Counted from the stretch's first letter, positions 5,691-61,597 are shown. The stretch: DNA of 64,000 nucleotides from Candidatus Komeilibacteria bacterium (GCA_043801745.1 JAZDLR010000021.1:6018-70017); one strand, 5' to 3'. Notes: a model not told the origin generated them from the letters alone. Numbers and translations: made by a program.

Positions 5691-5738
5691 GGCAGCCTGG
5701 CGTTAAACTTTAAGTAGTAATAAATTAACAGTAAAACT

Positions 5739-6245
5739 ATGCCCAGCAAAAAACAAAAAAAAGCTAGTCGAAAAAATATTGTCGCAGCGCAGAAACGCTG
5801 GCAATCAATGACACATTTTCACAGAGCCTTAGCTCAACCCCAAGGCCGGGCGCGGCTAAAGCCAGGTTCAACCGGTAAGGGCGAATTTTATCATATCGTG
5901 GTGCGGCCCAAAGAAGAGTTTACCAGTTTCCGTAATCAGGACGTGGGTAAGAAAGGGCACCTAGAACGGTTAGCTGGACGGCGTTCCAGCGGATCGTGGG
6001 CCACGCAAACTTGGTTGATCGGTAAAACTGATGCCACTGTTAAAAACGGTAAACTAATAGCTAAATCACCGGCAGCCAAAAAATTATTTGCCACTTTAGG
6101 TTCAGTACCAAGTTGGGTCAAGGGCGATATCTTTCAAGCTAAGGACAGGCGTAATATTCCGGAAAAGGACAAGCCGACCCTGGCGCAGCGCCGCGCTCAA
6201 GCTAAAAATATTAAGAAGGCTCAGGCAGCACGCCGCCGGCGTTAA
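5739..6245 (+). CDS. Hypothetical highly basic protein (GC about 50%, above window background)
   Basis: 168-aa ORF with Lys/Arg-rich termini. I recognise no family. Confidence 0.4.
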   Translation: MPSKKQKKASRKNIVAAQKRWQSMTHFHRALAQPQGRARLKPGSTGKGEFYHIVVRPKEEFTSFRNQDVGKKGHLERLAGRRSSGSWATQTWLIGKTDATVKNGKLIAKSPAAKKLFATLGSVPSWVKGDIFQAKDRRNIPEKDKPTLAQRRAQAKNIKKAQAARRRR

Positions 6246-6564: not shown

Positions 6565-7110
6565 ATGGCTAAACAAAATTTACAGCAAGGTCGCCGTTGG
6601 TATGCGCTTCATACCTATTCCGGTTATGAGGAAAACGTCTCTCGTAATCTGAAGCAGCGCATTGAATCCATGGATATGGAAGATAAAATTTTTGATGTTT
6701 TGATTCCGACCGAAACCAAGATCAAGATTAAGAATGGTAAACGCCGTACAGTACGCGAGAAAATATTTCCTGGCTACGTGCTGGTTAACATGATCGTAAC
6801 TGACGCTTCCTGGTATGTGGTGCGCAATACCCCTAATGTCACAGGATTTATCGGTACCGGTACTATCCCGACTCCGGTGGCGGATGAAGAAATAAAGTCC
6901 CTGCAGCAGCGTATGGGTGTAGAAGAGCCGGAATACAAGATTGATATTTCTGTTGGTCAGATGGTTAAGATTGTTGATGGACCGTTTAAGAATTACGAAG
7001 GTAAGGCCAGCGAAATTGACGAGGCCCGCGGCAAAGTTAAAGTTCTGATTTCTGTTTTTGGCCGGGAAACTCCGGTTGAGCTGGACTTTTTACAGGTTAA
7101 GAAGATGTAA
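6565..7110 (+). CDS. nusG: Transcription termination/antitermination factor NusG
   Basis: NGN domain ('WYALHTYSGYEENV', 'FPGYVLVNM') plus C-terminal KOW; in the secE-nusG-rplK-rplA arrangement. Confidence 0.85.
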   Translation: MAKQNLQQGRRWYALHTYSGYEENVSRNLKQRIESMDMEDKIFDVLIPTETKIKIKNGKRRTVREKIFPGYVLVNMIVTDASWYVVRNTPNVTGFIGTGTIPTPVADEEIKSLQQRMGVEEPEYKIDISVGQMVKIVDGPFKNYEGKASEIDEARGKVKVLISVFGRETPVELDFLQVKKM

Positions 7111-36899: not shown

Positions 36900-37673
36900 T
36901 TACTCGGCGGTCAGATCGGCCAGGACCTGCCCCCAGTCCTTGCGGTCCTGGCGAACGTCGTCCTGCTTGCCGGTTCCCTTGCAGGTTCTGCACTTGCCCA
37001 CATCTTCGTGGCAGCCATTGCACTCGCCATCGACATACTCGTCGTGGCGCTGGCCGGAGCCGTGGCAGTATTGGCATTTGCCGGAGCCGTAACAGTACTC
37101 ACAGTCCTTCTGGCCGAGAACTTCGCGGTAGAAGGGAGTGTGCACGAACATGACCTTGGCCCCGTTGACCCCGAAGTTGGGCTTGAAGCCCTCACGATAG
37201 TAGGACGTTCCAAGATGATCGATGGCGGCGCTCATCGCGCCCTTATGGTGGTTGGTGTCCGTGACCATGGCCACGAACTTGGCGCCGACTTTGGCCGCCT
37301 TCAGGGCTATGATGAAGCCGTATGGCACCTGCTCGGCGGGATGGTAGGCCTCCGAAGCAAGCGTCTGCCTGCTCATCGGCATCATCATGTCGGTGAGCAC
37401 CACATCGAACGGGAAAGGAACCACCGACTTGGCTTCTGCCTCGCGGTGGGCCTTCCAGAAAGCCTTCCATTCCTCGTCACCACCATTCCGGTCGGGCGTG
37501 GCCGGGAAGCCGGCCTCGGTCATGAGGCGCGTGACGTTCTCGTCGTCGATCTTCTTGGCCATGAGTCCCATGGCAGCATCGAAGGAGTCGACGATGGTCA
37601 CATCGTGACCAGCGAGGGAGTCGCGGGCCGACTGACGATGCATTTCCTTGTCTTCGACCACCAGAATTTTCAT
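36900..37673 (-). CDS. Receiver (REC) domain protein fused to a DnaJ-type (CxxCxGxG)x4 zinc finger; about 60% GC
   Basis: 'MKILVVEDKE' acidic pocket and 'DVVLTDMMMP' phospho-acceptor context. C-terminus 'CEYCYGSGKCQYCHGSG...CNGCHEDVGKCRTCKGTG'. The antisense low-complexity ORFs are rejected. Confidence 0.6.
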   Translation of the reverse strand: MKILVVEDKEMHRQSARDSLAGHDVTIVDSFDAAMGLMAKKIDDENVTRLMTEAGFPATPDRNGGDEEWKAFWKAHREAEAKSVVPFPFDVVLTDMMMPMSRQTLASEAYHPAEQVPYGFIIALKAAKVGAKFVAMVTDTNHHKGAMSAAIDHLGTSYYREGFKPNFGVNGAKVMFVHTPFYREVLGQKDCEYCYGSGKCQYCHGSGQRHDEYVDGECNGCHEDVGKCRTCKGTGKQDDVRQDRKDWGQVLADLTAE

Positions 37674-37899
37674 CTCTTCTCCTCATTGCCCGATCAGGGG
37701 CGTGGGGGTTTACGAACTCGTTGTCTTGAAGTTTATATTAACCGCGCAAAAGCACGGTTGATGTTTAAAGAACTTTTCGGATCACTTGAGCATACTAAGT
37801 TTTAGTTACTATGCTCGAGTGATCCCCCCGTCTAATCTTTCGACTAGACGAGGGGTATTGCTGGCGGTCGCGTTGCGCGGCGCGGGTCATGATGGTCGC

Positions 37900-38313
37900 C
37901 TACTGCTTCATGATGAAGCTTTCGGCCGCCCACTTCCACTGGGGCGTGCCTCTCTTGTAGACTTCCACGAAAGCCCGCGGGATGTACTTCCGGGGACAGG
38001 TATAGTCGCCGGTAAGGGCGTGCCCTTTCCCCCAGTAGTGGATCGAGCCATCATCCTTGATGTGGGCGATGGCGACGATCAGGCCGTCGTTCCGGCGGAG
38101 CAGGTCTCCGACCTGCAGGCTGTCTACCTCGGCTTGAGTGATGCCGTCGGTGGAGTTGACGTCGACTGCGGCGGAGGCCGGCGCCGGGTGGGTGGAGTGG
38201 TTCTTGGTACTGTCGCGAGGCAAGATCCAGATGAACACCAGCACTGCTGCAATTAAGAATATGATCACAGCCTGAAAGGGCGTGAGACCCATATTCTTCG
38301 GGCTCTCTTGCAT
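37900..38313 (-). CDS. Membrane-anchored hypothetical protein, paralog 1 (C-terminal ...AFVEVYKRGTPQWKWAAESF)
   Basis: RBS AAGGAGAAAGAGTC-ATG. TM helix, then a Pro/Ala/Ser linker and a roughly 80-aa domain shared with the next gene. Confidence 0.5.
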   Translation of the reverse strand: MQESPKNMGLTPFQAVIIFLIAAVLVFIWILPRDSTKNHSTHPAPASAAVDVNSTDGITQAEVDSLQVGDLLRRNDGLIVAIAHIKDDGSIHYWGKGHALTGDYTCPRKYIPRAFVEVYKRGTPQWKWAAESFIMKQ

Positions 38314-38357
38314 GACTCTTTCTCCTTCTTGCCCATCAGCTGATGGACGGTGGAAGT

Positions 38358-38741
38358 TTACTGGGCGAAGTACCGTTCGGCAGCCCAGATCCAGCCCGGC
38401 TCACCCTTCTTGTAGACAGCGATGAACCTGGTGTCGACTTGGCCGAGCGGGCAGAGCATGGGGGCCGTGTGGTGGCCTTGGTACTCGATGTTGCCGGTTT
38501 TGAGATTCGACCAACTTGGCCGATACTCCACGACCATTGAGTCGGTAGTCAGGAACAGCTTGCCGGGTGTGAAATCCAGGAAGTCGTTCCTGGTGACCGT
38601 GACGGAATTGACGGCGACCGCGGCGGACACCGGCGCCGGCTGGGTGGGGCGTTGCATGGCCGCTATGACAACCCAGGTTACCAATCCCACAGCTATTGCT
38701 GTGCCTATCATGGCATACGGGCCGAGCATTTTTTGGCTCAC
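38358..38741 (-). CDS. Membrane-anchored hypothetical protein, paralog 2 (C-terminal ...FIAVYKKGEPGWIWAAERYF), GTG start
   Basis: An identical upstream block 'CTGATGGGCAAGAAGGAGAAAG' precedes a GTG at 38741. Same architecture as 37900-38313. Confidence 0.45.
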   Translation of the reverse strand: MSQKMLGPYAMIGTAIAVGLVTWVVIAAMQRPTQPAPVSAAVAVNSVTVTRNDFLDFTPGKLFLTTDSMVVEYRPSWSNLKTGNIEYQGHHTAPMLCPLGQVDTRFIAVYKKGEPGWIWAAERYFAQ

Positions 38742-39183
38742 GACACTTTCTCCTTCTTGCCCATCAGCTCCGTCGGTTGGCGGATGGCTGGGGCGGTGAG
38801 GGTAAATTGAAAACTGATTCCTACTCACACAACTGAAGACAGGAGTTGATTGCTATCAACCAAAGGTCAATAGCATGGGCTTTACCTCTACGAGAGAAGG
38901 AAACCCGGCAAACAAGATTCGGGCAGTAACTAGATAAATCCAGTTGCGGCCACAAATACAAGTTCGCAAAATATCAGCAACCTGCCTCCATCTGTGTGAG
39001 TAGGAACGTTTAGTGGAATTAATCGCGTCAAATCACGTTAAACGTGACTAGCGCGATTTTAGTTTCAAGGAACTGACTTTGAATTAGTCACTTCTAAGCT
39101 TTCAACCAGTTAAAAGTTTAGAAGTGAGGAGGAGGAAAACAGCTGATGCTGTCTGCCTCCTCCTTGTGCCCATACGATCGGGA

Positions 39184-39471
39184 CTAGACCGGGATGAAGT
39201 GGTCGTTGTCCGCGTCGTCCCATTCGTTGGGGTCGCCGCAGGACACGCCGGTGGCGGTCCAGGCGGGGAGGAAGTTGATGGTCACCGGCAGCAGGTCGGA
39301 ACAGGTGTCGGCAGAGACGATTCGGGCCCACCGCCTTTCGATCCGCCGGAGGTGGTTCAGGGTCCAGTCATCAACGCTGTTCCAGAACTTCCACCCCTTC
39401 TCACCACCGAAGCGGTGAGACTGGGGCCTGAACTTCTTTCCGCGGCCGGGCAGTCTGACGAAAACGCGCAT
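39184..39471 (-). CDS. Hypothetical 95-aa Trp-rich protein of the GC-rich island
   Basis: RBS AAAGGTGG-5-ATG at 39471. The antisense ORF is Gly/Val/Pro low-complexity. Confidence 0.4.
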   Translation of the reverse strand: MRVFVRLPGRGKKFRPQSHRFGGEKGWKFWNSVDDWTLNHLRRIERRWARIVSADTCSDLLPVTINFLPAWTATGVSCGDPNEWDDADNDHFIPV

Positions 39472-39651
39472 TTCTGCCACCTTTCTTTTGTGGAGGATGA
39501 CAAAAACCCGTGAAAAAACTAAATTGATCTCAAGGTACACTTTGTCGTATCGAGCGTTGCTCGACAGCGACTCATCTAAACTTACATCTCTTGATATAAA
39601 CTTGGATGAGCGCGCGAGTCCCGAAGGACCTCGCGCGGCGGAGACTAGCAC

Positions 39652-39819
39652 CTAGCGCCGGTTGATGGCCTTGATGATTTCCTGGGCCGAGATGTCGATC
39701 TGAGTGACGACTGCCAGGATTCCGGCAATCACGCCCGGCCCGATCAGGAAGTCGCACACCGGAAAAATCGCAGCGAACATGAAGCAAGTTGCTGACAGGA
39801 AAGCAAGAATGAAGGGCAT
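39652..39819 (-). CDS. Hypothetical 55-aa hydrophobic peptide (MPFILAFLSATCFMFAAIFPVCDFLIGPGVIAGILAVVTQIDISAQEIIKAINRR)
   Basis: Hand-translated. RBS AAGGAGACTATC-ATG. First gene downstream of the consensus promoter at 39899-39927. Not in the supplied ORF track. Confidence 0.35.
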   Translation of the reverse strand: MPFILAFLSATCFMFAAIFPVCDFLIGPGVIAGILAVVTQIDISAQEIIKAINRR

Positions 39820-55686: not shown

Positions 55687-56235
55687 TTAAGATTTACACC
55701 ACTGAGACCAATCATTATAACTGGCAACCCTTCGATGATCACGACCGACTTTATATTCTGCGCTAAAGGCATCAAAAGGAATGAATTTGTTCTTTCCTGG
55801 CAGATAAACCTCAATCCAGGCATGACTGCGCCAGACACCGTTTCTCTTTAATTTTCCGTCAATAAGTTTCGTTGGTAAGCCAAGGTAACGAAGCACCAGA
55901 GCACTGACGCTGGCGATGCTGCCACAAGTACGTAGTCGCCGCCGGAGTATGACCGATACCGGTAGACAGCGCGACTCACTCTTTTTTTGAGTTGTGGAGG
56001 TGTGATATTTGGCGGGATTAAAATAGTTTCGAATATCGGTGATAATTTTAAAAATGAGCTTATCGCTTACTTGATAATTCTTATAGTTAGAAAAGTTTCG
56101 TAAAAATGAAATTGGGTAGTCGGAGCAATAAGGGCCATTAGTTAAATATTTCGAGGGTGAGGTCAAAATATTATTGCTATTTTGAATTAATAATTTTTTC
56201 TCTTTCTTCGTGCTCGAGATGTTTTGTTTCTTCAT
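55687..56235 (-). CDS. Transglutaminase-like cysteine protease-fold protein
   Basis: Cys in 'LRTCGSIASV', His in 'RSHAWIEVYLP', Asp in 'IPFDAF', with core spacing. Last gene of the candidate RiPP operon. Confidence 0.5.
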   Translation of the reverse strand: MKKQNISSTKKEKKLLIQNSNNILTSPSKYLTNGPYCSDYPISFLRNFSNYKNYQVSDKLIFKIITDIRNYFNPAKYHTSTTQKKSESRCLPVSVILRRRLRTCGSIASVSALVLRYLGLPTKLIDGKLKRNGVWRSHAWIEVYLPGKNKFIPFDAFSAEYKVGRDHRRVASYNDWSQWCKS

Positions 56236-56548
56236 AATATATTAGGTGCTTAATTTCATGATCAATAACTTTGTTGAAACCACCGGCATTTTCAATTTCC
56301 CAAGGGCAGATAAAAATTTTATTAGGAGGAGTAAAGGCTCCCCAGGTGCCACAGTGTACCCAATAACAAATAATATCTCGATCGGAAAAGAGTTCGATTT
56401 TGGGTCTCTTGAACCACAGCAATAACATTCTAAAGATATTTGGATAGAAAACTACGAGTTTTTTTTGTTTAAGCCACTTAAGATTGCTTAAAGTTCTATA
56501 ACTCCAGCGTAAGTCTTCAATTAGGCTATATTTATAGGCAATCATCAA
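56177..56548 (-). CDS. Small HExxH-motif protein (putative zinc metallopeptidase-like)
   Basis: 'VIDHEIKHLIYYEETKH'. 123 aa. Overlaps the next gene by 59 nt, so the true start is uncertain. Confidence 0.35.
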   Translation of the reverse strand: MMIAYKYSLIEDLRWSYRTLSNLKWLKQKKLVVFYPNIFRMLLLWFKRPKIELFSDRDIICYWVHCGTWGAFTPPNKIFICPWEIENAGGFNKVIDHEIKHLIYYEETKHLEHEEREKIINSK

Positions 56549-56698
56549 GAATAATTTCTAAGATAGTGTGTTTAGAAACAACGATAAAGCATTTACTAAT
56601 TGAGGTAAATTTTGTCCGTTTATAGTCTCGTTCGTGGACAATCGGCGTAGTAGAGACCGTTGATTATGTATTTTGAGTACACGGGTGTCTGGCACGTC

Positions 56699-57409
56699 TT
56701 AAATATTATTCAAATATTCTTCTGATAGTTTATCAAAGGTCGTGATAATATCGCGATTTACTTTCCAGCTATCAATCACTAATTGACGTAGTTTCTCATG
56801 ACCCAGATAGCCAATTTCAGGACGTTCAATTAAATCGCTCAATTCTAAATTAAGTAATTCAGTCAAGGACTCTTTGATATCGTACCTCTTCTTTTCCTCC
56901 ATTTCACGTAATTTTTTGTCAAAAACGTGATAAGTGTAAAAATGAAGTAGCTCGTGGCAAATTATTCTTAGTGGCTCATTACTATAAGCCGTGACAAAAA
57001 AATAATTTTGACCTAAACCGCATCTATCATTTGTTGTCAAATAGGCGGTCAATTCTTGTTGCGGGTAATCGTAATTGAAAATTTTATCCAGGCGGGTTTT
57101 AACGTTATTTTCAACTGGTAGCCATAATGTCTGGATGTCAAGTAATTTTTGTCGAAGATCAAATTTATTATATTTGACGAAGCCTTCGATAAATTTTGTC
57201 AAATTATTATCGCTAAAATCATATGCAAATTTTTTAGTAAAAAACGCCAAAACCTTTGAATCGCCGCCTTTATATTTGGTATTGGCAATTATTTTATAGT
57301 TTTCTATATCTTTTTCTAGATCATACTTTATATTTAGCAGCATAATGAATATTGTTAATAAATAGTTGAGGCCCACCTTTAGGGTAGGCCTCAATGGATT
57401 ACTAGTCAA
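56699..57409 (-). CDS. HExxH-motif protein (putative metallopeptidase-like), possibly membrane-anchored
   Basis: 'LRIICHELLHFYTYHV' with a downstream Glu. N-terminal hydrophobic segment. Confidence 0.4.
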   Translation of the reverse strand: MTSNPLRPTLKVGLNYLLTIFIMLLNIKYDLEKDIENYKIIANTKYKGGDSKVLAFFTKKFAYDFSDNNLTKFIEGFVKYNKFDLRQKLLDIQTLWLPVENNVKTRLDKIFNYDYPQQELTAYLTTNDRCGLGQNYFFVTAYSNEPLRIICHELLHFYTYHVFDKKLREMEEKKRYDIKESLTELLNLELSDLIERPEIGYLGHEKLRQLVIDSWKVNRDIITTFDKLSEEYLNNI

Positions 57410-57420
57410 CGTGATGTCAA

Positions 57421-57588
57421 CTAGTCCTGATCACATGACACGCAGTTGGTGCCACCGCTTCCGCTGCTACCGCCGTCTGAGCAGTCACAGTTGTAGCAGT
57501 TGTCAACGATGACGAGCGGTAACATTTGCATGGCTGGAAAGTCTTCCCTTGCTTCCAGCATGGCTTTTATGTCGAACTCCTCATTCAT
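57421..57588 (-). CDS. Candidate RiPP precursor peptide (55 aa): MNEEFDIKAMLEAREDFPAMQMLPLVIVDN-CYNCDCSDGGSSGSGGTNCVSCDQD
   Basis: RBS AGGAGGACGGTT-ATG. The ATG overlaps the radical-SAM stop in ATGAATGA (translational coupling). The C-terminal core has 5 Cys plus many Asp/Ser/Thr/Gly. Confidence 0.55.
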   Translation of the reverse strand: MNEEFDIKAMLEAREDFPAMQMLPLVIVDNCYNCDCSDGGSSGSGGTNCVSCDQD

Positions 57589-58948
57589 AACCGTCCTCCT
57601 TTCGCTCTCGGTCAAGAGAGATGAACCCCCTTGAAGCAAGTAGAGAAATGACGCGCGTGAATTCTCTATCGCCAGGATGACATCCGGACAATTGAGCTAG
57701 ACGTGCAAGCGATATTGGAGAATTGTTCCTAAGAAAGATGACAAAATGAAACATTGGCCCATTGATCGCGGTTACGTTCCTGTTTGCCCGCGAAGAGGCG
57801 ATCAAATATGTGTTTTTTCCCTCCCCTCTATATCTTAGTGGGTTTGACAACGTTACTACAGTGTCGGGTGTTAACTGTGGTGCTATACCTGAATTTGGTT
57901 TCTCAGGTGGTCTTGCGGTGGGAGTTGTCATCCATGGGTCCTCACCTTTGTCATGGCCGGTTAAAGCTTTGGCGGTAATTCTGCAGCCGCCGAAGCAATT
58001 TGTCACTAGGCCACAGGCGAGGCATCTATCGGGAGTTGTCTGTGTGTCTCGCCACTCAGACATTTTTTCCCAGATTGTCTCCAGTGGTTCGGATAGAAGG
58101 TTCCCATAGATTTTTGGGTTATGAGAACAGGGACGGATGTCGCCATTGTTGGCAATAGAAGCTACGGTTTTTCCCGCCTGACAGCAACGACTTACGAAAG
58201 AGTAACCGGCATCTCTTACGTACGGCGGGAATATACATTTGGGTAGCGCTTCAAAGATGTCAACCTCCATCCGTAGTTTTTCCTTAATACGGATTAGCTC
58301 TTTGATGACGGTTAGAACATCTTCTTGAGACAGCAGACGTGTGGAGTCAGGATTTTGAAGATTGAGTGCCATTGGGGTGACACCAAACATCCTTACTCCT
58401 AGATCACGCATCCGTTCCGCGGTTTGTCTGATATCGGCCAGATTTCGTTTATTGACCACCATATTGATGGCAAAGCGCTGTCCACTAGCGATAAGCATTT
58501 TAAGGTTATATTCAAACCTTTCGTAAATGCCGCCGCCAGTCATAGCCGAGTACAGTCGAGCATCACTCGAAGGACAGGAAACGAGCATGCTGTCGAGACC
58601 ACGGGCCACAAGAGATGCCAGTGATGCTTGATTGAGAAGAATCAGATTGGTGTTAAGCGATACATAAACACCATTTTGTTTGAGGTAATGAATCACCCTG
58701 AGAGCTAGCTCCTTGCGTACTAAAGGCTCGCCCCCGGTAACTACCACACCAAAAATCCGATCTTCAACGAGTTTCCTGGCCATTTCCATTACCAGCTCAT
58801 CAGGAATATCGGCCGTTTTTTTGACACGGTCGAATTCGAGATGATAGCAATGACTGCAACGCAAATTACATCTGTCAGTAATCTCCAGTTGCATATTTAT
58901 GGGTCGAGTCAGAGTCGGCATCTTGTCCTCCGAGGTATCGTTATGCAC
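57581..58948 (-). CDS. Radical SAM enzyme with C-terminal SPASM/twitch cysteine cluster (RiPP maturase-like; SCIFF/ranthipeptide-type)
   Basis: 'CNLRCSHCY' (CX3CX2C). Auxiliary clusters 'CCQAGK...CSHNP...CLACGLVTNCFGGC'. The likely start is the internal ATG at 58921 (GGAGGACAAG-ATG). Confidence 0.8.
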   Translation of the reverse strand: MHNDTSEDKMPTLTRPINMQLEITDRCNLRCSHCYHLEFDRVKKTADIPDELVMEMARKLVEDRIFGVVVTGGEPLVRKELALRVIHYLKQNGVYVSLNTNLILLNQASLASLVARGLDSMLVSCPSSDARLYSAMTGGGIYERFEYNLKMLIASGQRFAINMVVNKRNLADIRQTAERMRDLGVRMFGVTPMALNLQNPDSTRLLSQEDVLTVIKELIRIKEKLRMEVDIFEALPKCIFPPYVRDAGYSFVSRCCQAGKTVASIANNGDIRPCSHNPKIYGNLLSEPLETIWEKMSEWRDTQTTPDRCLACGLVTNCFGGCRITAKALTGHDKGEDPWMTTPTARPPEKPNSGIAPQLTPDTVVTLSNPLRYRGEGKNTYLIASSRANRNVTAINGPMFHFVIFLRNNSPISLARLAQLSGCHPGDREFTRVISLLASRGFISLDRERKEDGYE

Positions 58949-59224
58949 ATAGCAGACCGACGGCTATCAAATATGCCGTCTCACATTCCTTCGCCAAGGT
59001 AGGTACTGTTCATGACAAAGTCGTCAGTTTGAGTCTGAAACCGACGGCTATATTTGTGTTAAAGTACTTGTTTACATATGTATTTTAGCATCTTGTTCTG
59101 CTATTGGTAATCGCTTATGGTTTTCTTTAAAAAAATATGATCTATTGATTTAGCCTAAATAATTTATTTATCGGCGCAACAAAAAGATTAGTAATAATTT
59201 TTATTTAAATAGATTCTGGTAGGG

Positions 59225-59300
59225 ATAATTTGTTTTAGCGTTCCTCCTTTTGAAAGGGGAGGGTGACCGAGTGATTTCAAAAGATGGTGCCCTCTTGACA
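59225..59300. repeat. MITE family A-related fragment (TTCCTCCTTTTGAAAGGGGAGG hairpin)
   Basis: Shares the CTCC-TTTTGAA-GGAG hairpin module with 40011-40170. Confidence 0.3.
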
Positions 59301-59369
59301 TTTTTTTAGGTAGCGTTATGCTAAAGCCGTCTATATATTATCCGACGGCTTATTAATTAATGCCAATAT

Positions 59370-60062
59370 ATGAGTAAAATCCTGGCAGATCCGCAGTTAT
59401 TAGGACTGGCAATCGTTACTCTGTTAAATCTAGCTTTAGGACTGTATGTTTTTTTAAAGGATTTTAGAAATGTTTTAAATAAGATATTTCTGTTTTTAGC
59501 CATTTCAATAGTGGCTTGGTGTATCGCTATCTTCTGTACAATTTATTTTTATGAGGATGTCTTCCTATATGATTTGTCTGATAAGTTTACTTACATTGCC
59601 GGTCTTCTAATAGCCATTGGTTTTTATCTTTTTAGCATTTATTACGGCTATAAAAACCATAAGATCTCATCTTTAATTGTCATTGGTTATATTTTATTTT
59701 TTGCTATATTTTCTTATTTAGCCCTATTCTCACATTTGTTTGTGATTAATACTGCCAAAGAGGGCTTAATAACAGTTATTTACCGCAATCAGATGTCTTA
59801 TGCGATATATTCTTTGGCACTCATAAGCTTGTTCATTCTAGGATTAGTTGAATTATGGAAGAAAATGAAGGGCGGGGACGGAGTATATAAACAGCATTTC
59901 TTGACCTTAATCATATTAGTGGGTTTTTCTATTATTCTGAGTATATTCTTTGATCTATCGCTTTCAGCATTTAATAATTATTCTTATAGCGCTGTTGGCC
60001 CCCTATCGTCAGTTTTATTTATCTTCGCCATTATGAGGATGATTAATAGCAGTAAAGAATAG
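59370..60062 (+). CDS. Hypothetical polytopic (about 7 TM) membrane protein
   Basis: 230-aa ORF of alternating hydrophobic helices, Phe/Ile-rich. Divergent from the RiPP-like operon. Confidence 0.5.
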   Translation: MSKILADPQLLGLAIVTLLNLALGLYVFLKDFRNVLNKIFLFLAISIVAWCIAIFCTIYFYEDVFLYDLSDKFTYIAGLLIAIGFYLFSIYYGYKNHKISSLIVIGYILFFAIFSYLALFSHLFVINTAKEGLITVIYRNQMSYAIYSLALISLFILGLVELWKKMKGGDGVYKQHFLTLIILVGFSIILSIFFDLSLSAFNNYSYSAVGPLSSVLFIFAIMRMINSSKE

Positions 60063-60065
60063 CCA

Positions 60066-61034
60066 ATGTCTAAACGCAAGAAAATCGCTTTAATCTATTC
60101 AACTGGCACAGTCTTATCTTCCCTGAAAAACCGCAGTATTGTTTTTGTTGATTCTGATAGTGATATTCCCAAGTGGCTGGAGTCTATTCCGGAGATTTCT
60201 CTAATTGCTGATATTGAGCCGCAATTTTTTTTGTCTGAATCCGCGACTATGGGATATTCTGATACTTTGCGGTTGTCAGAGCAGATTGACATTCTGCGGC
60301 GGCAGGTTGATGGCATTGTGATTCTGATGCGGACCGAAAGTATTATTCAGCAAGCTACGCTACTGAATTTTCTCAATCAAAATGTCACCATTCCGGTTAT
60401 TATTACCGGCGCTGTGGTTTCGCCCCAAGCTTTGACCGAGGGCGTACTGTCGGATATTTCCAAGAAAAATGTCGCCTTGAGCCTGAAGAGTAATGTGATT
60501 AACGCCACTCAGGTAGCAACCCGGGATTTTCACGGCTTTGGCCTGATGTATGGTAACCGTTTAATCGAACCGGTCCGCGCCCAGAGAGATAATATTGAAG
60601 CGCTTAATGTATTTAGTTCAATTGATGGTAACTACGCCGGCCGGGTGGAATTTGGCATTAGCTTGAATCAGCCCAAAAAGGCCGATAAGCCAACTAAACA
60701 TTATAATAATTTTTCTACTAATGTAACTGTTATTGACTCGTCTTTCTTAACTCTGGGTAGCTTAAAAAATCTGACAGCTGACGCGGTTATTATTAAAATT
60801 CGGGAAAATGAGCAGTTACCTTTGGAAGTTTACGAAGCCTTACGTCAGTTAAAACAGCCGGTAATTCTTTATAATTATTGGTACGTTTTGGAGCATAAAG
60901 GCCTGATAGATATTTCTCATATTACTGAAGAGAGCTTATTGGCAAAAGTAATGTGGCTGGCGGCTGACAGCAAATCAACGGCAGCGTTTTATCAAAGAAT
61001 AAGCGAAAACGTAATTGGGGAACTACTGCAATGA
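60066..61034 (+). CDS. Asparaginase-family-like protein with degenerate catalytic motifs (possibly non-catalytic)
   Basis: 'IALIYSTGTVLSS' (cf. TGGTIAG) and 'GIVILMRTESI' (cf. HGTDTM), 'PVIITGAVVSP'. 322 aa. Confidence 0.35.
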   Translation: MSKRKKIALIYSTGTVLSSLKNRSIVFVDSDSDIPKWLESIPEISLIADIEPQFFLSESATMGYSDTLRLSEQIDILRRQVDGIVILMRTESIIQQATLLNFLNQNVTIPVIITGAVVSPQALTEGVLSDISKKNVALSLKSNVINATQVATRDFHGFGLMYGNRLIEPVRAQRDNIEALNVFSSIDGNYAGRVEFGISLNQPKKADKPTKHYNNFSTNVTVIDSSFLTLGSLKNLTADAVIIKIRENEQLPLEVYEALRQLKQPVILYNYWYVLEHKGLIDISHITEESLLAKVMWLAADSKSTAAFYQRISENVIGELLQ

Positions 61035-61597
61035 GAATCTATTATTTTGCTAATGTCAAGAATCCGGCTCAACTTCTGATATTTCAGGAAGCGTCTTCAT
61101 TATTACGTAAGTATGGCTTATCAGTGGTTGACAACGTTAAATCCAAGCCTGACTTTGAATTAGGCGAGCAGGGAGGCGTTGATCAGATAGACGCGGTGAT
61201 TATTGATGCTAGTGGTTCCGATGCCGAAGCCGGTTATTTACTGGCCGTGGCTATTGCTCATAAGAAGCCGGTTTTATATTTATTGCCGGCTGGTACGCAG
61301 CTTGACACGTCGGTGAAAGCTTTGACTCTCAATAAAGCCATCAAAGATTATCTGCGCGTGGAATTTTTCCTGACAGTGAATTTTTCCAAGAAGATTAAAG
61401 AATTTCTACAGTATTTGGATCAGGATATTGGCAAGGAAGCGCATTCAGTGAAATTTACTTTACGCCTGACGCCGAAACTGGAACGTTATTTAAACTGGAA
61501 AGCCGAAAAAGGTAATCGTAACAAGGCGGATTATGTCCGTAGCTTTCTGGAGGAGTCCATGAAAGCGGACGAGGAATATAAGAATCGGTTAAAGTAG
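61031..61597 (+). CDS. Hypothetical protein, nucleoside 2-deoxyribosyltransferase-like fold suspected
   Basis: 'MRIYYFANV...DAVIIDASGSDAEAGYLLAVAIAHKKPVLYL' resembles the NDT-like Rossmann pattern. Weak. Confidence 0.3.
   Translation: MRIYYFANVKNPAQLLIFQEASSLLRKYGLSVVDNVKSKPDFELGEQGGVDQIDAVIIDASGSDAEAGYLLAVAIAHKKPVLYLLPAGTQLDTSVKALTLNKAIKDYLRVEFFLTVNFSKKIKEFLQYLDQDIGKEAHSVKFTLRLTPKLERYLNWKAEKGNRNKADYVRSFLEESMKADEEYKNRLK

Follow-up and report, generated by a model that had tools for sequence, protein, structure and literature searches.

We analysed a stretch of 64,000 nt (hereafter, the window) from a metagenome-assembled genome (MAG) of Candidatus Komeilibacteria, with positions counted from its first letter. 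Based on the open reading frame (ORF) list and the sequence, the locus under study consists of five genes on the minus strand and one divergent membrane-protein gene (Table 1). These encode a radical S-adenosylmethionine (rSAM) enzyme with a SPASM domain, a Cys/Asp-rich peptide of 55 amino acids (aa), two small proteins with an HExxH motif (HExxH-1 and HExxH-2), a transglutaminase-core protein and a protein with seven transmembrane segments (7-TM). A preliminary description of the region had listed this gene set, and all of its members were recovered in the ORF list, the sequence and Pfam searches. The locus is, with high confidence, an rSAM-dependent cluster for a ribosomally made and post-translationally modified peptide (RiPP), as the preliminary description had proposed; the conserved enzyme–peptide pair, the shared leader and core motifs and a predicted RiPP recognition element (RRE) in the enzyme all bear this out. 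The same description had placed the five genes in an AT-rich stretch, which holds for the HExxH genes (GC 0.30-0.38) and the 7-TM gene (0.32), but not for the rSAM and peptide genes, whose GC content (0.46-0.49) is level with the remaining window.

Table 1. Positions of the cluster features in the window, and of the matching hairpins and HExxH-2 modules in other loci
Feature	Position	Strand	Description	Basis
rSAM/SPASM maturase ORF	57581-58948	-	455 aa from GTG	Pfam
Radical-SAM core	58412-58885	-	residues 22-179, motif C27x3C31x2C34	PF04055
SPASM auxiliary Fe-S cluster region	57983-58183	-	residues 256-322; C238 upstream	PF13186
C-terminal RRE (predicted)	57608-57865	-	approximately residues 362-447, winged helix-turn-helix	predicted fold
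Precursor peptide gene	57421-57588	-	55 aa + stop, unannotated	
Leader	57502-57588	-	approximately residues 1-29, carries EDFPAM	
Core	57424-57501	-	approximately residues 30-55, NCYNCDCSDGGSSGSGGTNCVSCDQD	
Terminator-like/attenuator hairpin	57366-57394	-	12-bp stem, directly 3' of precursor gene	
Hairpin, L005	6905-6983			
Hairpin, L006	7478-7545			
Hairpin, L007	1645-1735			
Hairpin, L008	2033-2143			
Hairpin, L011	4338-4442			
HExxH-1	56699-57409 (ORF); NCBI start 57343	-	214 aa from NCBI start, motif HELLH	
HExxH-2	56177-56548 (ORF)	-	122 aa as 56177-56545, motif HEIKH	
Transglutaminase-core protein	55687-56235	-	182 aa	PF01841
7-TM membrane protein	59370-60062	+	230 aa, divergent	PF16927
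Upstream repeat AGCCGTCGG, three copies	58957-58965, 59041-59049, 59342-59350	-	within rSAM upstream region 58957-59350	
Second rSAM–peptide–HExxH-2 module, L085	3743-5399			
Second rSAM–peptide–HExxH-2 module, L086	2648-4429			
Second rSAM–peptide–HExxH-2 module, L088	183-1931			

The rSAM enzyme more probably begins at the ATG at 58921, which GGAGG precedes by 4 nt, a start that gives a protein of 446 aa and agrees with the N-termini of homologues; the NCBI call is 437 aa, and the protein is 100% identical to one from a Candidatus Komeilibacteria MAG. The enzyme carries both the CX3CX2C motif and the domain of the radical-SAM superfamily (PF04055, 75.4 bits; threshold, 29.5), with C27, C31 and C34 at least 90% conserved among 30 homologues, and PF13353 (Fer4_12) also scored above its gathering threshold. 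A SPASM domain was detected at residues 256-312 (PF13186, 29.7 bits against 21.5), its cysteines being arranged as C256-X12-G-X4-C274 and C309x2C312x5C318x3C322. These six and C238 are invariant in the alignment of the 30 homologues (A1). No eighth Cys of this region is conserved, and D337 is invariant, so that one auxiliary cluster may have a non-Cys or open site.

A protein search detected 607 relatives of the enzyme at E <= 1e-10, the best 120 of which share 38-56% identity with it, mostly across approximately 440 aa, and 346 matches were found in GTDB contigs (one genome per species). The family also occurs in archaeal MAGs, namely, Pacearchaeota (L008), Nanoarchaeota (L047 and L048) and Methanosarcinales (L054). 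In L008, the enzyme is 45% identical and the gene order (rSAM, peptide, HExxH-1) is that of the window, which points to transfer between the candidate phyla radiation (CPR) and DPANN, or to binning errors. No NCBIfam model came near its cut-off with the window enzyme: the best match was GeoRSP (106 bits; cut-off, 400), and the scores for PqqE (99 against 381), AhbD (99 against 500), StsB (NF045574, 78 against 625), PapB (NF047865, 68.3 against 340) and AlbA (NF012164, 58 against 850) did not indicate membership. Family members from Bacteroidia and from Pelotalea (L013) were likewise below all cut-offs, the PapB model giving 75.2 bits with the former. Among solved structures, the family profile was nearest to SuiB (E = 6e-18), PqqE and SkfB, with anaerobic sulfatase maturase (anSME) and CteB reaching only 1e-11.

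The peptide encoded next to this enzyme, MNEEFDIKAMLEAREDFPAMQMLPLVIVDNCYNCDCSDGGSSGSGGTNCVSCDQD, contains five Cys. The overlap of its ATG with the TGA of the rSAM gene spans 8 nt (ATGAATGA), and a strong Shine–Dalgarno sequence, AGGAGG, stands 6 nt upstream; both support the translational coupling claimed earlier. The exact peptide sequence is not in a collection of 15 billion proteins and has therefore been called by no gene caller; two relatives of it are in that collection, the named one as a 'hypothetical protein'. No Pfam model matched the peptide or either HExxH protein above threshold, and the peptide matched none of the NCBIfam families. A phmmer search with the window peptide gave no match among those ORFs of the loci that have 60 aa or more, and a composition filter combined with alignment replaced it for finding homologous peptides.

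For this purpose, we compared 52 related loci, in which the rSAM enzyme is approximately 27-54% identical to that of the window over the best aligned segment, with 27 control loci containing only distant rSAM enzymes (22-30% identity). A small ORF on the same strand with a Cys/Asp-rich tail, as required by the strict filter, was found beside the rSAM gene in 33 of the 52 related loci, and in 41 when visibly similar ORFs were added. The same strict filter detected none in the 27 controls, and over the whole window it returned a single ORF, the peptide itself. The small ORF sits directly downstream of the rSAM gene, except in L028, L029, L030 and L033, where it lies within approximately 1 kb upstream. 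The tight spacing is kept across related loci, the peptide start either overlapping the rSAM stop or lying only a few nucleotides from it. The preliminary description was to be abandoned if the small ORF were not conserved in relatives; that outcome did not arise, because the ORF is kept beside the enzyme.

In the aligned peptides, the core opens with (D/N)NC[YF]xCD approximately 8-10 residues after the leader motif [FY][DN]Fxx[ML], of which EDFPAM is the window version. Core length and sequence vary widely across the family, and the Bacteroidales loci carry two or three tandem paralogous precursors. The peptide thus shows the general marks of a RiPP precursor: it is short, its gene adjoins that of the enzyme and is retained in relatives, and its leader is conserved while its core varies. 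In one protein of 494 aa, P0030 (from an ENA contig of 48.5 kb), the rSAM-SPASM-RRE enzyme is fused in frame to a family precursor (...SDFAAMQVLPLSVVDNCFCDCDSGGCDCDTCNCDSCDAGT), although an assembly or frameshift artefact is possible. In the close relative L001, the public call is a 70-aa ORF (6737-6949, minus strand) antisense to the real precursor (6767-6904, plus strand). From these data, we conclude that the 55-aa ORF is a real gene and that precursors of this family are systematically missed or mis-called by gene callers.

The C-terminal domain of the enzyme offers a candidate means of leader recognition. A structural model of the last 100 or so residues matches RREs from RiPP systems, some of them solved with bound leaders. 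Pfam detected no PqqD match in this domain, so that the assignment as a fused C-terminal RRE follows from the predicted fold. Proteusin epimerases provide a precedent for RREs at the C-terminus (PMC8326336), and the RRE is N-terminal in the thioether/SPASM maturases that have been compared (PMC10352776).

We then analysed the composition of the core in 38 family peptides, which is 27% Cys, 24% Asp, 11% Gly, 10% Ser and 8% Asn. Asp directly follows 176 of the 275 Cys (approximately 66 expected), and 81% of these Cys precede Asp, Asn or Glu. At position +4 from Cys, Asp was found in 104 of 275 cases against approximately 66 expected, with depletion at +2; the enrichment at +4 is weak evidence for a PapB-type core, because the CDxCD periodicity also yields it. 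The window core contains three CX3D motifs (C31-D35, C34-D38 and C49-D53). In it, a Gly-rich run also comes after a cluster of Cys (CDCSDGGSSGSGG), a feature shared by close relatives. The enzyme PapB joins the Cys sulfur to the beta-carbon of Asp in CX3D and tolerates CXnD with n = 0-6, CX0D poorly (PMC9413430), and StsB joins three Cys to Gly alpha-carbons in the core CxCxCx4GxGxG (PMC10288494). Given these two precedents, a thioether is the most economical hypothesis for the modification of Cys, and in our analysis we regard the case for it as evenly poised.

Directly 3' of the precursor gene, the transcript is predicted to form a hairpin (intergenic fold, -25.5 kcal/mol; z = -5.3). A hairpin follows the precursor in all six loci examined (the window and five relatives), its position kept, its sequence not, and in most cases with a U-run, suggesting attenuation between the precursor and HExxH-1 with the downstream genes.

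HExxH-1 follows the peptide in 15 loci. Its HELLH motif occupies residues 130-134, and K157-E158, Y179 and R186 are invariant; the HExxH motif and invariant E158 belong to a predicted gluzincin fold, and the protein is probably the leader peptidase. A second and unrelated HExxH family of approximately 200 aa, with weak similarity to Peptidase_MA_2, adjoins the rSAM gene in nine other loci, and in the Bacteroidales loci a DUF4760 membrane protein stands in place of the HExxH gene. Hidden Markov models of the locus-derived HExxH families C1 and C3 matched neither HExxH-2 nor the 200-aa HExxH protein of L029, and so gave no evidence that the HExxH proteins share an ancestor. Neither HExxH-1 nor HExxH-2 matched any curated Pfam or NCBIfam family, the latter giving a weak M76 similarity only (E = 0.023). 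As of June 2026, these two databases contain no model for either protein or for the peptide.

HExxH-2 is a minimal zincin-like protein for which an exhaustive HMMER search detected 36 homologue clusters, with H96, E97, H100 and E116 invariant (alignment A4). In all three loci with context, its homologues adjoin a different rSAM enzyme of approximately 345 aa (19% identical) and a Cys-rich peptide of 51-73 aa. The peptides of this second module have the leader FIRxNYRGxGxSAP and the core pattern C-x-C-[DN]-C, with the cores CQCDCQEC, HCQCDCACE and CVCNCGGGWC. The HExxH-2 of the window belongs to the partner family of this module, and the approximately 345-aa rSAM enzyme is absent from the window.

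The transglutaminase-core protein matched PF01841 (41.2 bits against a cut-off of 23; E = 2e-10) and contains the papain-like residues Cys (RTCGS), His (SHAW) and Asp (PFDA); PF13471, the lasso B2-type model, gave only 16.9 bits against 26 (E = 0.0063). A word-indexed homologue search with this protein returned only the protein itself. Its one recurrence came from the locus set: in L029, the gene immediately 3' of the rSAM gene encodes a homologue of 40% identity in which the Cys, His and Asp are all kept. The island at 1244-8485 in L029 (Patescibacteria) also encodes a C39 peptidase, a DUF2268 Zn-protease and a second rSAM-SPASM enzyme with an N-terminal extension, in addition to a precursor (5733-5888) upstream of the rSAM gene, the transglutaminase-like protein and the 200-aa HExxH protein. 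The earlier claim that protease-like neighbours are part of this type of cluster agrees with their recurrence in related clusters (HExxH-1 in 15 loci, HExxH-2 in three of three and the transglutaminase-like protein once).

Taken together, these observations are consistent with the following model, which as a whole we consider reasonably probable. The rSAM/SPASM enzyme and the 55-aa precursor would be co-transcribed and translationally coupled, and the hairpin after the precursor gene would terminate or attenuate the transcript. The RRE would bind the leader via [FY][DN]Fxx[ML], placing the Cys/Asp/Gly-rich core (NCYNCDCSD...CVSCDQD) into the active site. There, the radical-SAM cluster would generate a 5'-deoxyadenosyl radical for hydrogen abstraction from the acceptor residue, and, assisted by the SPASM auxiliary clusters, the Cys sulfur and the acceptor carbon would combine to form several intramolecular thioether rings. 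The likeliest acceptor would be the Asp beta-carbon, as in PapB and QhpD, with the Gly alpha-carbon, as in StsB, as the alternative. The leader could then be removed by the gluzincin-fold HExxH-1, possibly together with HExxH-2 and the transglutaminase-like Cys-His-Asp protein.

Compared with the known systems, the cluster shows partial likeness to several. As in the PapB/PapA (freyrasin) system, an rSAM-SPASM enzyme is paired with a Cys/Asp-rich core in which CX3D motifs occur; the dominant unit of the present family, however, is adjacent Cys-Asp (CDxCD or CDCD runs) and not spaced CX3D, and the leader motif differs. As in SCIFF (CteB and Tte1186), a short multi-Cys precursor adjoins an rSAM-SPASM maturase with an RRE, but this element is N-terminal in CteB and C-terminal here, and the core is Asp/Gly-rich whereas that of SCIFF contains Thr. 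The cut-offs of TIGR03973 and TIGR03974 were not reached by the window peptide and enzyme, respectively, and the label 'SCIFF-like' used in the preliminary description had to be dropped, the peptide having no NCBIfam match and the enzyme lying below every maturase cut-off, with GeoRSP as its best match. The Cys cluster and Gly-rich stretch of the window core and its close relatives recall the sactipeptide pair StsB/StsA (PMC10288494), but the Bacteroidales family members lack the Gly-rich stretch. FibroRumin (TIGR04135) is a curated model naming a small, Cys-rich RiPP modified by an rSAM enzyme, and it gave the sole peptide-model match, 13.6 bits against 45 (E = 0.048), with a family peptide from Bacteroidia and none with the window peptide; the name 'FibroRumin' is absent from the literature searched. 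QhpD forms Cys-to-Asp/Glu thioethers. On the Pelotalea member (L013), its model TIGR03906 gave 57 bits against 453, no amine dehydrogenase genes are present at the window cluster, and the present enzyme would act on a short, free peptide that has a leader. The QhpD/QhpC pair resembles the present one in that QhpD is an rSAM-SPASM thioether maker, named together with CteB and Tte1186 (PMC10352776). Finally, proteins with a transglutaminase fold (lasso B2) or an HExxH zincin fold (the alpha-ketoglutarate-dependent ChlH and PflC) are established tailoring or processing enzymes of RiPPs (PMC12636437), but HExxH-1 and HExxH-2 are much smaller than ChlH.

Several observations weigh against the proposed model. 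The enzyme is without a close characterised homologue, the NCBIfam models of thioether maturases are all far under their cut-offs, and the closest relatives by score form other bonds, SuiB and PqqE, the best among solved structures, making C–C bonds and not thioethers. No exporter or immunity gene is evident in the window cluster, and some related loci, such as L009, hold the enzyme and peptide alone. The hairpin could mean that HExxH-1 is transcribed separately, and the cluster may be mosaic, because both HExxH genes and the first part of the transglutaminase gene depart in GC content from the rSAM and peptide genes. Within the same RiPP architecture, the rSAM enzyme could act on the Cys-Asp core by chemistry other than thioether formation, such as epimerisation, C–C or C–O cross-linking, formation of Cys-derived heterocycles or oxidation to a metal-binding ligand, with, for example, a metal-chelating peptide as the product. 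This is rather unlikely in our assessment. It accords with the absence of thioethers from the products of the nearest relatives (GeoRSP, AhbD and MftC in addition to SuiB and PqqE), with a dominant repeat of adjacent Cys-Asp that is the unit of no characterised thioether RiPP and resembles the CX0D on which PapB is poor, and with general chemistry, dense Cys/Asp runs binding metals well. However, Cys-rich cores are mostly thioether substrates among the characterised rSAM-SPASM RiPPs, Cys-to-Asp links have two precedents in PapB and QhpD, and the sequence favours no specific alternative. A different reading concerns HExxH-1, which could be an alpha-ketoglutarate/Fe(II)-dependent hydroxylase and not a peptidase. 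Such HExxH hydroxylases are known in RiPP clusters (PMC12636437), and HExxH-1, perhaps with HExxH-2, would then, like ChlH, BpmH and PflC, hydroxylate residues of the core such as Asp; by sequence, HExxH-1 is not in that oxygenase family (TIGR04267/IPR026337), and we judge this role improbable.

Two further readings concern the peptide itself. Models of the PqqE, MftC and AhbD type score among the best, the cluster is without an exporter, and in a reduced genome costly secondary metabolism is unexpected, all of which would suit a peptide that gives rise to a redox cofactor inside the cell, or to an Fe-S or metal-handling factor, analogous to pyrroloquinoline quinone or mycofactocin, in place of a secreted bioactive peptide. 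However, the wide variation of the core and the two or three tandem precursors of Bacteroidales resemble bacteriocin-like RiPPs and not cofactor precursors with a fixed motif, and no conserved cofactor-dependent enzyme was found near the loci, leaving this reading with a very low probability. That the small ORF arose by chance beside a non-RiPP enzyme such as anSME is hardly credible. In its favour, the peptide lacks annotation and has a low-complexity sequence, and generic SPASM enzymes include anSME; against this, conserved adjacency, the leader motif, the natural fusion and the fused RRE refute a chance ORF. The anSME model (TIGR03942) was outside the top 25 matches of the window enzyme, all of which were below 107 bits, and it gave 62 bits against 349 with the Bacteroidia relative; the window ORF list contains no sulfatase near the cluster. 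The confident match to a non-RiPP family that the preliminary description had named as grounds for rejection was therefore not obtained.

The preliminary description had further suggested that a RiPP in Patescibacteria is undescribed. This was overstated, because antiSMASH surveys already count such clusters, with 16 in CPR and 9 in DPANN in one case (PMC12153355) and further counts in another (PMC8692599); the Patescibacteria MAGs of one study yielded none (PMC11613949), and a survey of Bacteroidales RiPPs covers other clusters (PMC10352776). We found no published description of the present family in the open literature, where papers on RiPPs of CPR, Patescibacteria or DPANN give bulk antiSMASH counts, and an earlier bioinformatic mention is possible. 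The pair is an uncurated variant of rSAM-SPASM RiPPs, and no new principle is demonstrated. If the enzyme does modify peptides, the family would form an uncurated and phylogenetically wide branch of radical-SAM peptide natural products, with members in CPR bacteria, DPANN archaea, Bacteroidales of the rumen and gut and other groups. What sets it apart is the Cys-Asp repeat core, the predicted C-terminal RRE and two small, dedicated zincin-like partner families that neither Pfam nor NCBIfam models. The family would in addition provide a concrete, testable case of specialised peptide chemistry in genome-reduced episymbionts, and the short CD-repeat substrates might be of interest to the enzymology of peptide macrocyclisation, as PapB was. 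More speculatively, and with considerable doubt, the pair may represent an unrecognised poly-(Cys-Asp) RiPP class of CPR, DPANN and rumen Bacteroidales with an undescribed modification (Cys-Asp links or a metal-binding scaffold), its product acting in symbiont–host interaction or metal acquisition.

Upstream of the rSAM gene, the 9-mer AGCCGTCGG occurs in three exact copies, with no others in the window and approximately 0.5 expected by chance. The copy at 59342 lies in an inverted repeat, AGCCGTC...GACGGCT, and the 9-mer, which lies between the divergently oriented rSAM and 7-TM genes, may serve as a regulatory repeat or operator. The 7-TM protein matched PF16927 (HisKA_7TM, 42 bits against 28.6; E = 1e-10) and is without a kinase domain. 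Two further loci of Patescibacteria (L006 and L035) have weak homologues near the rSAM gene; its association with the cluster is weak, and shared ancestry of the neighbourhood is possible. Beyond it, positions 60066-61597 on the plus strand encode a 322-aa protein with an asparaginase N-terminal domain (PF00710, E = 2e-19) followed by a 188-aa protein with a weakly RelB-like C-terminus. This pair also adjoins the rSAM cluster in the Buchananbacteria locus L006 (3884-5391), in a different orientation, which could reflect synteny or a functional link.

In the whole window, no Rfam family, tRNA included, reached its gathering score, and the GC-rich stretch at 36.5-40.5 kb likewise gave no Rfam match. 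This stretch contains an island at approximately 36900-39700 with a GC content of 0.53-0.58, compared with approximately 0.45. On its minus strand, the island encodes a 257-aa protein (36900-37673) with a response-regulator-like N-terminus and repeated CxxC in the C-terminus, and two paralogous membrane-anchored proteins of 137 aa (37900-38313) and 156 aa (38358-38828). The island is probably foreign DNA.

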